From the IMG/VR virus record IMGVR_UViG_3300030103_005573, positions 1 through 64,000 of that record: DNA of 64,000 nucleotides, one strand, 5' to 3'. Shown here piece by piece: positions 1,882-24,744 of this stretch (positions are counted from its first letter, which is position 1; each line of letters begins with the position of its first letter). This DNA comes from a virus. The translations under genes and the position numbers were made by a program. A model generated the notes under the pieces. The model saw only the letters and a program-made list of their open reading frames with translations. It ran no database searches and was not told where the DNA came from.

Positions 1882-3057
1882 CTACATGTCTAGCTTTAGT
1901 TTAAATGTATAATTGTCCGCTTCTTTTTTCTGGACAGGGTTTGCTAGCTTAGCAACACCAATAAGATTTTTATCTTTATCAAAGATCCCAATCTCGGTTA
2001 TAAAGGTTTGCTTCTGGAACTCGTCCTCGTAATTACAATATCGACTATTAATAGTATTCTTAATCTTCGTTTCATCAGGCTCTTTATAATTTACCTCTGC
2101 AACAGAAGTATTGTCTCTCCAGTTAGAGTTGGAAGAAGATACAAATGTAGGATTTTGAGAATTATTCAAGTCCCCTGGTTGAGCCGTGGCAAACATAGTC
2201 ATTGTTGGTATCTTCTGAGTTCCCTCAAAACTTATGGAAAATAAACTAGCTGAAGATAACCCCGAGGCATATGCTCCAAAATATTGCCAACTGGCTCTTT
2301 CATTGCTGGCACCTGTTGTGTACTTGTCTGTGTTGGAGCTTATATCTACCGAAGAGGTTAGTAAAACAAACCCCTCATTGTAAAGCACGACTCCGACTAC
2401 AGAACCACTAGCTCCGCCCATAGTGGATATAAGTTGTCCATTTTTTCGTGAATCGACAGCCTCATCAATTAAAGATCCGGTGTAATAAAATTTTAGACTT
2501 ACTGTTCCCTTTTTAATTTCTTCACCAAACATTATAGAAGGGATCTGAAGCATATTGACTGTTCCAGATATATAACTGCCATTATAGGCGAAACTATTAC
2601 TCAGGTAACGGTAATAATTCATTGTATTCTGAAGTGATATTAGTTCTTTGCGATTTGTTACATATGTATCTTTTGCAGTAGGAGTGCCAGAAGGAAAAGG
2701 ATAAGTTGTTGAATTAAAGTATTGTCGAACTACCGATGAAGTTAAAGGATATGAACCTGTTATGGTTGTAACAGATGGATCTAAAGAATTATATTGTTCT
2801 CTTGTTAGATTATTAGTTCTAAATACAAGTCCTGTATTTCTTGTCACATAGGGTCGAATTAACTGTTGAGACACACCATCTCTGTCAACATTGTACTCAA
2901 ATAAATTTATTGTACCAGTTGTAATGTTTGCTCCGAGAGTGTCTCCATTATTGTTAATATATGCAGAACCACTATACATCACAAAGTCAAACTTTGGACG
3001 TGTGATAATCCTATTCTGAAGAATATCGTTCGGACCAAAAGTATGGAGGTAAGGCAT
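1882..3057 (-). CDS. Virion (baseplate/tail) protein with C-terminal tail-collar-like motif
   Basis: C-terminus TFITEIGIFDKDKNLIGVAKLANPVQK..TFKLKLDM; paralogous to the C-terminus of 3071..4132; S/T/G-rich. Confidence 0.7.
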   Translation of the reverse strand: MPYLHTFGPNDILQNRIITRPKFDFVMYSGSAYINNNGDTLGANITTGTINLFEYNVDRDGVSQQLIRPYVTRNTGLVFRTNNLTREQYNSLDPSVTTITGSYPLTSSVVRQYFNSTTYPFPSGTPTAKDTYVTNRKELISLQNTMNYYRYLSNSFAYNGSYISGTVNMLQIPSIMFGEEIKKGTVSLKFYYTGSLIDEAVDSRKNGQLISTMGGASGSVVGVVLYNEGFVLLTSSVDISSNTDKYTTGASNERASWQYFGAYASGLSSASLFSISFEGTQKIPTMTMFATAQPGDLNNSQNPTFVSSSNSNWRDNTSVAEVNYKEPDETKIKNTINSRYCNYEDEFQKQTFITEIGIFDKDKNLIGVAKLANPVQKKEADNYTFKLKLDM

Positions 3058-3070
3058 TTTTACCTCCCAA

Positions 3071-22500: not shown

Positions 22501-23263
22501 TTGCATCGGAAATTGTTATTTGACCTGGAGTTGTTGGTATAGCAGTCTCTGTAAATCCATTCGTGCCCGATAACATTGTCACAAAAAACTGTGTTTCTGA
22601 TCCTGAATGTAATGCTATCCTAAATCTTCCGTAATTATCACTAGATGAATTTGCTACTGGGGTGCCGTTGGTTAGATCAATAATCGCCATCTTTCTAGAT
22701 TCAGCAACTGTGTTTAAATTATCTTTCTTTAGAAAAAACTCAACTGTTGTCCCGCTGGTGCCGCCAAATTCTAGATTAGATGTCCTACCCTTAGATTCAT
22801 CAAATTTTGTGCTTTTGTGAGGACCACCTTTAACTTGAATATATGTTGGTGTAGTTGGTGAGTCATAAAATGATGCATTTGTTGAGGAAAGTTTATAAGG
22901 GTAGCCTATAAATATATACCCAGTGCTTCTGGGGTATATTGTTTCTAAAGTATACTTTTCCAAAGGGTTTATATTATTGAAAAAGTCTGTCTTTTCCAAA
23001 CCCGAACCATCATAAGGGTAATCGCTAGCAATAAATTCAAAAGCATTTTTATAATACTCAAAAGCAGATCCAAACCTTACAAAGTTTTCTGGTTTTGAGT
23101 AATCTATAGGTGGAAGAAAATATTCATTCCTATCTGTAAGGGCCTTTAGATGATCACTAGATTCTATACCATCGCCCAAAGTATTGGGCGCACTACTTTT
23201 TAAATATTTGTTTACCGTAGTGCCTTCTTTGTTATTTTGATATAGACTTTTTAAGCTGCTCAT
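19583..23263 (-). CDS. Baseplate wedge-like protein with LamG/concanavalin-like domains (1226 aa)
   Basis: LamG-type motifs TVEFFLK, WRNFS, LFVNG, SFDEFRFWK..R..EQI and YFKFNEG. IYNNLNFILKSKGNEKSIRNFIRCLG resembles the KGT..I helix of P2 gpI/T4 gp7-type wedge proteins. Confidence 0.65.
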   Translation of the reverse strand: MSSLKSLYQNNKEGTTVNKYLKSSAPNTLGDGIESSDHLKALTDRNEYFLPPIDYSKPENFVRFGSAFEYYKNAFEFIASDYPYDGSGLEKTDFFNNINPLEKYTLETIYPRSTGYIFIGYPYKLSSTNASFYDSPTTPTYIQVKGGPHKSTKFDESKGRTSNLEFGGTSGTTVEFFLKKDNLNTVAESRKMAIIDLTNGTPVANSSSDNYGRFRIALHSGSETQFFVTMLSGTNGFTETAIPTTPGQITISDATWRNFSFRFNTSGSSPTMDLFVNGECVETGVTGSGAIGQVTGTMIANLGGLRESPEGFGGLGLAEGSGKLSASFDEFRFWKASRDSEQIGRNWFTNVEGGSDKYDANVSLGVYFKFNEGITGNNSVDAIILDYSGRVSNGNYVGYSSALPYPRNTGSAINQLSIQSITERGEPIIRTNHPDYISTKNEYQLSGSNYDFNNSSRLINNLPTWVVEAEEASNNEIVALTQIISGYFDTLYNQLTYLKELKYNNYISGSLTESIDEFPFNDRLVDNLGVTAPELFENSGLLAQFLQRDEQINFDQHLVDIKNSIYKNIYNNLNFILKSKGNEKSIRNFIRCLGVGEEVLAFNAYSDDADYELTSSYITTVSHKKYIDFTSLLNQTDGEATVYQYYDSTNVNSVGLISGSDQLDEYSFSVQSEFVFPSKENEDTLPYLVPNVVSSSLFGFHTPLDTDPTSTDLTWQSAANDYGLQVYAVKKPGQFSEIISPLNKVKDAYFIVKDRTGNTLLTSSVFRNVYDNERWNLSLTLKPKRYPFSNSILSSSVSSTGYELGLYGVNFNTGQKQNYFNVVSDLSYTSGSSIINSAKRIYIGAHKTNFTGSTLTSTDVRASSTRYWTDFLPPEVLDIQAREVDTHGTLHPSRNSYLFQTASAGVYIPNIQTLALNWEFTKVTGSNASGRFIVQDSSHGLNDSSYEATYQGDTLSNINLRQHTGRGDFFTAYASPARKQYVYSNSLVSPEYLAYTDVVQVLSADDRVFGTFKKPSSSFYAIEKSMYRSISSRMLHLFASIKDFNNLIGEPVNKYRLNYKQMEKLREIFFRKVQNDIVDLQKYLDYYKWLDSAVTQMLDQLMPFSARYAENVRNIVESHSLERNKIKYQPPLLKVPGENTATPQNVIEGSAGGPTIELGVPGAGSDTPIPPLQPPQPNPNFLPGISERINPETLIPIEPIVQQEELRRFSNWTQNYVLDRIFRDFP

Positions 23264-24744
23264 ACATCATCTTCTTCTATTTTAAATTTAAATACTTCTG
23301 ATTGTTCTCTGTATTCACCTTGTAAATAGTAAGCAAACTTAATTCCATACATATATCCAGGCTCTAGACATGAAGTATCTAATTCAAAATAGTTCCCGCT
23401 CACGTCATATGATAAGCGAGTGAAGTTGTTGTTTGAACTTCCAGTTCCAAATGGGATTATTTCTAAATTATCAATAGAACGGAAGATACGATAGTAAGCA
23501 TCTTCTATGATTGTTGCCTCAACAGTAGATTTTGCAACCGTATATATATTAGGACTCCAATCCTTATCCCTAACAAACACACGGAGTTGTGGCTTCTGCC
23601 CTTTTTTGTAACTGTCTTTTAGATTAGTTATATTTGTTAGATATACAGTATCATATAACAAATTGGACGTATCTACTGGAATTGGTTCGTATGATCCAGT
23701 GTGGTATTCTATTCTAGGAGCGGAACCTGTCCACCAAACATCGTAAACACTTTCTAAAGAACTAGTAGAAGCAAACGAAGCAGTATAAACACCTGAAACT
23801 GTGTTTCCATTTTCTACTAAAAGTCCTGCGGTGACTGTATTAACAGAATTGCCGTCAGTATCTGTAATATAAAGAGGTGAACCAGTTGGAGCAGCGCTCC
23901 CAGAATAAAGTTCAACTTTTAGTTTGTTATTTGCTAATCCTGGAATGTTTGTTAATTGTCCCCTGATAACATTGTAGAGAAAAATAGTATTTAGATTATC
24001 TGTCGCAGGCGCTATACTGCTGCTTATATAAAAATTTCCTCTGTTATCTTTTCTACTAGAGTCCCAGCGAGCCTCAATTGTTGGTTGATAGTGATAAAAT
24101 TCACTTGTTCTACCAAAAAATCTTTTAGTGTAAAAACTATCAGAACCAGATACTATCGCATCAGGAAATCTAATAAGGAATCCATAATTATTTGTTGATC
24201 CTAACCACTTATATACCTGCTCAGAAACATCGACAGATATATTCTCCAAACCAGTACTAAATGGTACAGTGACTGAAGTGTTGGGACCAGTTATTATAGA
24301 TGAACCTGTCTCAGACCACGCCACTCCAGAGGATGCAGATATCCAGTTTGACACTCCAAGATCTGAATAGTTGTCCATGTCTAGCCCTCGACCCTCAGAC
24401 CAACTCTGAGACAACATATTCATCTGAAGGGTGAAGTCTTCCGGGGTTGATGATCCGTGAGGTGCATTATAGAGGTTAAGATGGAACTTTATACTCCCTG
24501 TGTTTGCTGGAAGAATTCCACTGCTTATATCTGCCTGGATAGAATCTATGGGGAATTGGATTATAATCCTACTCTGCTCAGCATTTACAGCGCTAATTGA
24601 GGCTGAGGTTTGTCCATGGATAACAAAAGCTTCTAATATATCAGATGCGCCCATGTTTGATCCAGTTCCTCTTGTCAGAAGATCGCTCTTAAAAGCGTTT
24701 GTGATTGTATTATCTTTGTTTGAGTAGTATTTTTTTATGCCCAT
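23260..24744 (-). CDS. Virion/baseplate protein (DNRLRE-like N-terminal domain plus Ig-like C-terminal region)
   Basis: KDNTI, SRIIIQF, SWSEG.G, NYGFLI and P.IEARWD patterns; adjacent to gp6; 9 [S/T]GS motifs. Confidence 0.6.
   Translation of the reverse strand: MGIKKYYSNKDNTITNAFKSDLLTRGTGSNMGASDILEAFVIHGQTSASISAVNAEQSRIIIQFPIDSIQADISSGILPANTGSIKFHLNLYNAPHGSSTPEDFTLQMNMLSQSWSEGRGLDMDNYSDLGVSNWISASSGVAWSETGSSIITGPNTSVTVPFSTGLENISVDVSEQVYKWLGSTNNYGFLIRFPDAIVSGSDSFYTKRFFGRTSEFYHYQPTIEARWDSSRKDNRGNFYISSSIAPATDNLNTIFLYNVIRGQLTNIPGLANNKLKVELYSGSAAPTGSPLYITDTDGNSVNTVTAGLLVENGNTVSGVYTASFASTSSLESVYDVWWTGSAPRIEYHTGSYEPIPVDTSNLLYDTVYLTNITNLKDSYKKGQKPQLRVFVRDKDWSPNIYTVAKSTVEATIIEDAYYRIFRSIDNLEIIPFGTGSSNNNFTRLSYDVSGNYFELDTSCLEPGYMYGIKFAYYLQGEYREQSEVFKFKIEEDDV

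Follow-up and report, generated by a model that had tools for sequence, protein, structure and literature searches.

Among the late genes of an uncultured marine myophage, the tripeptide [ST]-G-S (i.e., serine or threonine followed by glycine and serine, hereafter [ST]GS) recurs in a subset of tail proteins and is considered here as a candidate glycosylation sequon. The stretch of DNA analysed, hereafter the window, corresponds to positions 1 to 64,000 of the IMG/VR virus record IMGVR_UViG_3300030103_005573. It encodes six motif-rich tail proteins, namely of 494, 1226, 2186, 391, 353 and 301 amino acids (aa), together with large structural proteins nearly devoid of the motif and with a sugar/glycosyltransferase (GT) island (37071-46998), beyond which a PhoH gene is encoded (Table 1). 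A first-pass annotation, made by eye from the DNA and its translations, had proposed that the tripeptide marks surface-exposed serine or threonine acceptor sites for the phage's own GTs or for some other phage-specified modification.

Table 1. Features of the window, with [ST]GS counts given as observed vs expected where available
Feature	Position	Strand	[ST]GS	Remarks
Whole 64-kb window	1..64000	-		Late genes; T4-like myophage block of an uncultured marine phage, 78-kb contig
494-aa outer baseplate protein	23260..24744	-	9 vs 0.95	Beta-sandwich modules
1226-aa tail protein	19583..23263	-	10 vs 1.74
2186-aa tail protein	12997..19557	-	10 vs 3.2
353-aa protein	3071..4132	-	4 vs 0.57	Module family common to Mel-JY01, immuto, RM378 and LR756508
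391-aa protein	1882..3057	-	4 vs 0.58	Paralogue within the 353-aa module family
301-aa fibre-type protein	53695..54600	-	4 vs 0.55	Two motifs in an internal repeat
gp6-type baseplate wedge protein	24746..26542	-	0	Non-tagged class
1976-aa giant inner structural protein	26957..32887	-	1 vs 1.14	Non-tagged; homologues in related loci depleted
1177-aa and 1097-aa Ser-rich tail proteins	5252..12080	-	1 vs 0.87; 0 vs 0.89	Non-tagged
Baseplate-hub-like protein	34127-35350
Variable sugar cassette	37071..44468	-		DegT aminotransferase, two methyltransferases, NDP-sugar 4,6-dehydratase, sugar N-formyltransferase, three more GT-like proteins
606-aa GT-like protein	42648-44468			C-terminal CgeB-type domain PF13524
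GT-B, 425-aa GT4 glycosyltransferase	44465..45742	-		Always next to GT-A among enriched relatives; LR756508 without match
GT-A, 419-aa GT4 glycosyltransferase	45739..46998	-		E-x7-E invariant; virus-restricted family; conserved island core
PD-(D/E)XK nuclease gene (279 aa) and 218-aa gene	47008-48519			218-aa product with faint metallopeptidase-like matches
Trypsin-like serine protease, 310 aa	55304-56236			PF13365

The [ST]GS excess in the window

Against an expectation derived from 2000 shuffles of each protein's own sequence, the six tail proteins together contain 41 [ST]GS for 7.58 expected (Poisson P 2e-17), i.e., about five times chance, with a shuffle p of at most 0.0035 for every one of them and per-protein expectations of 0.6-3.2; the remaining open reading frames (ORFs) of the 78-kb contig contain 12 for 11.24 expected. 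The enrichment noted from the sequence is confirmed and survives composition-matched shuffling. The counts made by eye were exact for the 494-, 1226-, 2186-, 391- and 301-aa proteins (9, 10, 10, 4 and 4, respectively), and only that for the 353-aa protein had to be raised, from three to four, because the stretch SGSISGS contains two motifs; the four proteins said to carry about none or one each, namely the 1976-, 1177- and 1097-aa proteins and gp6, do so (1, 1, 0 and 0).

When all 8000 tripeptides are ranked over the full set of 14 tail ORFs, TGS comes first (21 vs 5.1, P 1e-7) and SGS second (24 vs 7.2, P 7e-7), so that both pass Bonferroni correction, and in the same scan neither NGS nor DGS is enriched. 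Under a first-order Markov expectation, a twofold [ST]GS excess remains. The enriched proteins are Ser-rich (10.5-14%), yet the equally Ser-rich 1097-aa protein has no motif at all. No paralogy links the six proteins, beyond a weak similarity of the 391- and 353-aa proteins in a C-terminal region. The sequence context of the motif varies from site to site, no long repeat unit lies behind it, and its codons follow the overall usage of their genes (Gly p=0.13, Ser p=0.58); the motif is therefore not a DNA repeat, as the first-pass annotation had stated from its dispersion and varied codons, and an origin at the DNA level can be ruled out. The 310-aa protein contains two SGS, one of them within G-S-S-G-S-P, which is probably the catalytic-serine motif; since this protein is a trypsin-like protease, its SGS fall outside the phenomenon and should be kept out of motif counts.

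Motif grammar, protein classes and turnover among related phages

The preferences at each position of the motif were determined from a pool of 213 distinct proteins, 356,000 aa in all, whose genes lie downstream of those for the 494-aa homologues in 159 IMG/VR loci. Position 1 accepts only serine (4.2x) or threonine (5.2x), all other residues reaching at most 1.5x; position 2 accepts glycine (about 5x), then alanine (about 3x), then serine (about 2.4x) and no other residue; position 3 favours serine (about 5x) well above threonine (about 2x). As such, the unit is made of two hydroxyl residues with one small residue in between. Outside the motif, positions -1 and +1 show a weak aliphatic preference, with lysine, arginine and proline disfavoured, and aromatic residues as well as histidine are mildly enriched at -2 to -5. 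In this pool, the turn-forming [ST]GN and [ST]GD show no excess.

In about 220 related loci with flanking ORFs, the L083 and L166 lineages excepted, one and the same pattern is found throughout: proteins encoded upstream of the 494-aa homologue, namely gp6 and the giant protein, have the motif at or below expectation, and proteins encoded downstream are enriched 4-6x. Pooled over the 159 IMG/VR loci, the downstream (outer) proteins total 2139 motifs for 463 expected (4.6x) and the upstream (inner-baseplate) proteins 124 for 209 (0.59x, i.e., depleted). Likewise, in G009, a complete relative of 186 kb, seven tail-block proteins hold 49 motifs for 9.3 expected, none occurs in six further large proteins of this block for 5.1 expected, and the rest of the proteome is at expectation (22 vs 23.5). 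From this contrast between outer and inner proteins, it follows that the motif labels one class of virion proteins and is shunned in another.

The family of the 494-aa protein is marine and huge: a single search yielded more than 3000 matches, and clustering at 50% gives 1201 representatives. A tblastn search of this protein against 50,697 phage records returned no match, a profile search of the PDB with its family no meaningful match, and single-protein scans with the zero-motif members P0243 and P0284 nothing useful. Homologues at 56-91% identity (n=40) average 6.8 motifs for 0.87 expected, and 7/9 sites are kept with exchanges between threonine and serine that retain the motif. At greater distance (36-66% identity), 151 representatives total 937 motifs for 161 expected (5.8x), and insertions without homology to the query are enriched as well (177 vs 67). 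The motif there occupies 163 alignment columns, 32 of which are retained in more than three representatives, for 2-7 columns with control tripeptides ([ST]GT, [ST]GN, [ND]GS, etc.) and for 21 and 20 columns with the relaxed forms [ST]AS and [ST]SS, respectively. Judging from these alignments, the motif is under selection while turning over between positions.

Five representatives of the family have no motif, the loops at every site being either deleted or acidic; the fold thus does not require the motif. The 494-aa homologues of L083 and L166 are also motif-poor, as are the homologues in the uncultured phage LR756508. The 494-aa protein itself consists of a chain of beta-sandwich modules, one resembling a carbohydrate-binding module (CBM) and the others Ig/FN3-like. 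In its AlphaFold model, the G-S pair lies in coil at 8/9 sites and the [ST] residue is the last of a strand at three sites, in line with the loop placement anticipated by the first-pass annotation. Within the 353/391 family, some sites are conserved over very deep divergence, e.g., after N-Y-S-x-N-P-[ST].

The two lineages departing from the common pattern do so in several proteins. In L083 (G005, a 44-kb record), the homologues of the 1226- and 2186-aa proteins are fused into a single ORF of 4735 aa (24982-39186), where serine is halved (about 6%), acidic residues are raised (14.7%) and the motif is at expectation (2 vs 2.35), and the 494-aa homologue has one motif. In L166, the 494-aa homologue has none and the downstream proteins have 4 for 2.5 expected. 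As a separate observation, the G005 contig encodes at 15060-16442 a homologue of the 353-aa family in which an inserted poly-Ser/Asp/Gly linker holds all three SGS.

The glycosyltransferase pair, its island and their distribution

Two adjoining genes of the island encode GTs of the GT4 type. GT-A matches PF00534 (Glycos_transf_1) with 47.2 bits for a cut-off of 26.4, as well as PF13692 and PF20706, and in its C-terminal Rossmann domain the E-x7-E motif (A-E-G-F-G-L...E; E287, E295) is invariant in 10 orthologues. GT-B matches PF00534 with 30.6 bits for the same cut-off of 26.4; in a nine-sequence alignment, the first glutamate of its E-x7-E is invariant and the second is the consensus, replaced by asparagine in the window's copy, so that the activity of GT-B may be altered in this particular phage. 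The GT-A family is almost wholly viral, with related clusters in Nucleocytoviricota. By sequence search of the PDB, the best match of GT-A is the chlorovirus protein B736L (3oy2), a weak one (E 5e-8 over 170 residues), followed by BshA and MshA among others, and GT-B has no match. In Mel-JY01, the GT-A orthologue (PP395634.1 83444-84929) is split over two frames (198 + 313 aa), which could reflect a frameshift, a sequencing error or an interrupted gene; despite this split, Mel-JY01 has the strongest motif excess among the cultured members.

On one side of the pair and the sugar cassette is the baseplate hub gene, on the other the PhoH gene, and this relative position is the same in 9 relatives. 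In these nine marine genomes, GT-A and GT-B are always side by side and adjoin the genes for the PD-(D/E)XK nuclease and the 218-aa protein, beyond which the PhoH gene comes in 8/9, as the fixed edge of a variable island. The aminotransferase, the methyltransferases, the dehydratase, the formyltransferase and the other GTs vary in presence among them; the 606-aa GT-like protein has its CgeB-type C-terminal half in 6/9, and its N-terminal part of about 360 residues matches no family. Judged by gene content, the island is swappable except for the conserved edge formed by GT-A and GT-B.

No transmembrane segment is predicted in any of the island proteins, all of which are soluble by prediction, and among their family matches no flippase, polymerase or lipid-carrier transferase was seen. 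Neither is there a heptosyltransferase (GT9-like, of the TibC or Aah type), the GT-like proteins of the island matching GT4- or CgeB-type Pfam families only. The ThyA/hydroxymethylase family (PF00303) was not found in the complete G009 and G001 nor in Mel-JY01, both genes being recovered in the T4 control and the contig of the window being incomplete; a T4-style DNA glucosylation is therefore unlikely.

Beyond the close relatives, the tblastn search with GT-A of the 50,697 phage records gave nine matches, namely four immuto records, Mel-JY01, LR756508, RM378 and two S-CBS4 records. In Table 2, the motif count is set beside the GT pair, GT-B having been looked for in the marine genomes in the DNA around GT-A.

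Table 2. [ST]GS counts (observed vs expected) and GT pair in related and unrelated phages
Phage	[ST]GS	GT-A	GT-B
Nine long marine relatives, proteins downstream of 494-aa homologue	12-22 vs 2.6-4.3 per locus	9/9 (49-59% identity)	9/9 (31-40%)
Microcystis phage Mel-JY01	45 vs 6.4	Yes	Yes
Flavobacterium phage immuto	61 vs 13.7	Yes	Yes
Rhodothermus phage RM378 (64.8-76 kb cluster)	21 vs 3.3	Yes	Half-length match, adjacent gene
Uncultured LR756508 (near gp6)	~6 vs 2.9	Yes (profile E 8e-63)	Not found
T4	7 vs 9.4	No GT4 (PF00534) match	No GT4 (PF00534) match
Cyanomyophage S-CREM1	16 vs 11.2	No
Rhizobium phage RHph_TM39	17 vs 9.9	No
Siphophage S-CBS4	17 vs 14.3	Partial distant match only

In Mel-JY01 and immuto, SGS and TGS are again among the top tripeptides and gp6 again has none. 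Their motif-rich proteins are partly different from those of the window, the 494-, 1226-, 2186- and 301-aa proteins having no detectable homologue in either phage. In immuto, a tail spike of 1053 aa (MW353176.1 97614-100775) carries a repeated SGSFSHAEG-type unit, and HAE, SHA and GSF are among its top tripeptides. In RM378, none of the portal, sheath, capsid and replication proteins has more than one motif; regarding this phage as a phylogenetically independent case had to be rejected, as it carries the 353-aa module and hence belongs to the same deep clade. LR756508, with GT-A and no GT-B, shows no enrichment, and its two homologues of the 353-aa module have no motif. A generic GT4 is no predictor of the motif, since S-CBS4 has a partial distant GT4 match and no enrichment.

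A candidate sequon for virion glycosylation

Taken as a glycosylation sequon on the phage's own outer tail proteins, [ST]-[G>A>S]-S finds what appears to be its best explanation, whose chance of being right is put at about one half. A sequon read by a soluble factor would be the most economical account because the motif is precise, has been gained in unrelated outer proteins, is under selection, is dispensable for the fold and is avoided in inner proteins; the conserved GT4 pair of the tail block is the obvious candidate for this factor. More precisely, the motif would act as a short acceptor signal for cytoplasmic O-glycosylation of outward-facing baseplate and fibre proteins, displayed between hydrophobic flanks in the turns of beta-sandwich modules and where their strands end. 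GT-A and GT-B would put the first sugar or sugars on its Ser/Thr hydroxyls, and on this primer the extra GTs would extend a lineage-specific glycan from the formylated and methylated amino-dideoxy sugar that the cassette (37071-44468) is predicted to make. Proteins of the inner baseplate and of other assembly interfaces avoid the motif. Which residue accepts the sugar is itself inferred, and the glycan may serve for shielding, solubility or interaction with the host surface.

The proposal of the first-pass annotation is partly supported. Each sequence-level prediction put to the test held, as regards the grammar, the selection on the motif, the location of the sites in turns and loops and their confinement to one class of proteins; as regards the GTs, the association is a correlation in which common descent is a confounder. 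The comparison of motif and GTs across relatives gave the same mixed outcome, i.e., a coexistence throughout the clade that is inseparable from shared ancestry, and no relative without the GTs and with an equal enrichment turned up. Several observations weigh against the sequon. GT-A, the gp6 type of the window and the 353-aa module occur in the identical seven cultured phage records, which thus form one deep clade in which the co-occurrence of motif and GTs cannot be told from common descent. The sole case of decoupling is LR756508 (n=1), for which the scan covered 42 of its 484 kb, and the contig of the motif-poor L083 stops before the GT region. In L083, the 391-aa homologue retains three conserved TGS sites; motif loss is there protein-specific, and a genome-wide loss, considered for this lineage, is rejected from this homologue on the full contig. 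The SGSFSHAEG-type repeat inflates the excess of immuto, where 26/61 [ST]GS lie in the 1053-aa spike. The AlphaFold2 model of the 494-aa protein is of moderate quality (predicted local distance difference test, pLDDT, 65), several sites falling in stretches of low confidence. Most bacterial and phage O-glycosyltransferases known so far read no strict short sequon.

These observations bear in part on another explanation, rather unlikely though to be taken seriously, where no enzyme is involved and Phi-[ST]-G-S-Phi is a favoured structural solution for a strand-to-turn transition or beta-bulge in the exposed beta-sandwich modules of the outer tail proteins, yielding small, hydrophilic and flexible loops. 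Sites at strand ends and turns with an aliphatic residue at -1 and +1 are just what it predicts, and the deep conservation of some sites in the 353/391 family, their persistence in one protein of L083 with loss in others, and the character of the motif as a clade trait, as a common architecture would be, fit it as well. Yet the same folds exist without the motif in the zero-motif members and in the homologues from L083, L166 and LR756508, the beta-sandwich-rich tail proteins of T4, S-CREM1 and the Rhizobium phage show no excess, and other turn-formers, i.e., NGS, DGS, [ST]GN and [ST]GD, are not enriched. It also does not account for an equal enrichment in unrelated proteins and non-homologous insertions, nor for the absence or depletion of the motif in further large proteins that belong to the structure of this virion. 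As to chance or composition, the serine content of the enriched proteins is high enough to raise the suspicion, but an artefact of Ser/Gly-rich proteins is contradicted by the per-protein shuffles, the Bonferroni-corrected tripeptide scan and the Markov-1 control, by the equally Ser-rich 1097-aa protein without motif and by the replication of the excess in hundreds of relatives, and can be practically dismissed.

The requirement of the grammar for hydroxyl residues would also suit a signal for another phage-specified modification of serine and threonine, e.g., phosphorylation, with the GT island serving some other target; since no conserved candidate enzyme other than GT-A and GT-B was found beside the tail genes throughout the clade, this is improbable. 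About as improbable are binding loops, i.e., S/T/G-rich loops, often near tyrosine, tryptophan or histidine, that would touch the host polysaccharide weakly while the island alters the glycans of the host envelope and blocks superinfection. The CBM-like module of the 494-aa protein, the mild enrichment of aromatic residues and histidine at -2 to -5, and the interpretation in PMC7029224 of GTs in a host-recognition cluster as modifiers of the host O-chain speak for such loops. Receptor-contact loops should nonetheless vary by host, and many sites are kept at 40% identity; the motif spans phages of Flavobacterium, Microcystis, Rhodothermus and marine hosts, and among the proteins of the island there is none of the membrane and neither a flippase nor a polymerase nor a lipid-carrier transferase.

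If [ST]-[G>A>S]-S is indeed a sequon, the closest known system in function is the O-glycosylation of mycobacteriophage virions by phage-encoded GTs (Freeman et al., 2023, Cell Host Microbe, as cited in PMC12619734). As far as this citing account goes, the two resemble each other in that GT genes lie within or beside the structural block and that cytoplasmic modification of the phage's own virion proteins is proposed. According to the same account, the glycans of mycobacteriophages, which are siphophages of Actinobacteria, are located on the C-termini of capsid and tail-tube subunits and were shown chemically, whereas the phage of the window is a myophage with candidate tripeptides dispersed over outer baseplate and fibre proteins and recognised from sequence. 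No C-terminal arrangement on capsid or tail-tube subunits emerges here, the sites being dispersed and the G009 proteome outside the seven tail-block proteins being flat when counted as a whole (22 vs 23.5).

Another likeness is with the O-GlcNAc transferase GtfA/GtfB of the serine-rich-repeat adhesins of Gram-positive bacteria (PMC6973325, PMC5207161), i.e., a cytoplasmic GT4-type pair priming Ser/Thr in a context of serine, small residue and serine, with variable GTs extending the glycan. GtfA and GtfB are absent from the PDB sequence matches of GT-A, and no specific sequence relationship was found. Unlike the degenerate, chaperone-like partner of that pair, GT-B retains E-x7-E in most relatives; a degenerate GtfB-like partner, as the window's copy could have suggested, was rejected because most of the nine aligned orthologues retain the second glutamate, and GT-B is thus not a degenerate acceptor-binding partner, asparagine being found in the window's copy only. 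Also, the sites of the window are single and dispersed tripeptides, unlike the long tandem S-x-S repeats of these adhesins.

In pelagimyophages and cyanomyophages, a host-recognition cluster carries GT and deoxy-sugar genes among tail-fibre genes (PMC7029224), and as in the window, sugar and GT genes are interleaved with tail genes in large marine T4-like phages. That study assigns the GT genes to host O-chain modification and avoidance of coinfection, without describing a motif; in the cyanomyophage S-CREM1, both GT-A and the motif excess are missing. Chloroviruses and mimiviruses provide a further parallel, with virus-encoded soluble GTs, rare amino-deoxy sugars of bacterial type and decorated outer virion proteins of the capsid or the fibrils; unlike the phage of the window, they infect eukaryotes, and the similarity of GT-A with B736L is weak. 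Chlorovirus glycans are N-linked at atypical sites. The literature searches returned no report of the [ST]GS motif or of tail glycosylation in the present clade.

Stated for the whole group, the hypothesis is more tentative and has somewhat less than an even chance: a widespread clade of aquatic myophages would possess a dedicated O-glycosylation of the virion, with the sequon [ST]-[G/A/S]-S on folded outer tail proteins, a virus-specific GT4 pair of which GT-B is the candidate reader, a swappable cassette giving a serotype-like coat, and inner proteins purged of the motif. The clade would comprise abundant uncultured marine phages of about 190 kb together with the cultured phages of Flavobacterium, Microcystis and Rhodothermus. 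Glycosylation of virions by phage enzymes is so far known from a few actinobacteriophages, besides giant viruses, and the literature searched describes no short linear sequon. If [ST]-[GAS]-S is one, glycosylated tail proteins would become predictable from sequence in a very abundant group of marine phages, and the GT islands among tail-fibre genes, usually understood as serving the modification of host envelope or DNA, would here stand for virion decoration. As three cultured members of the clade carry the motif and the GT pair (with a half-length GT-B match in RM378), the idea is directly testable. A swappable glycan coat on the tail parts in contact with the host would have consequences for host range, for how virions adsorb to non-host particles and for their resistance to proteases or grazers.

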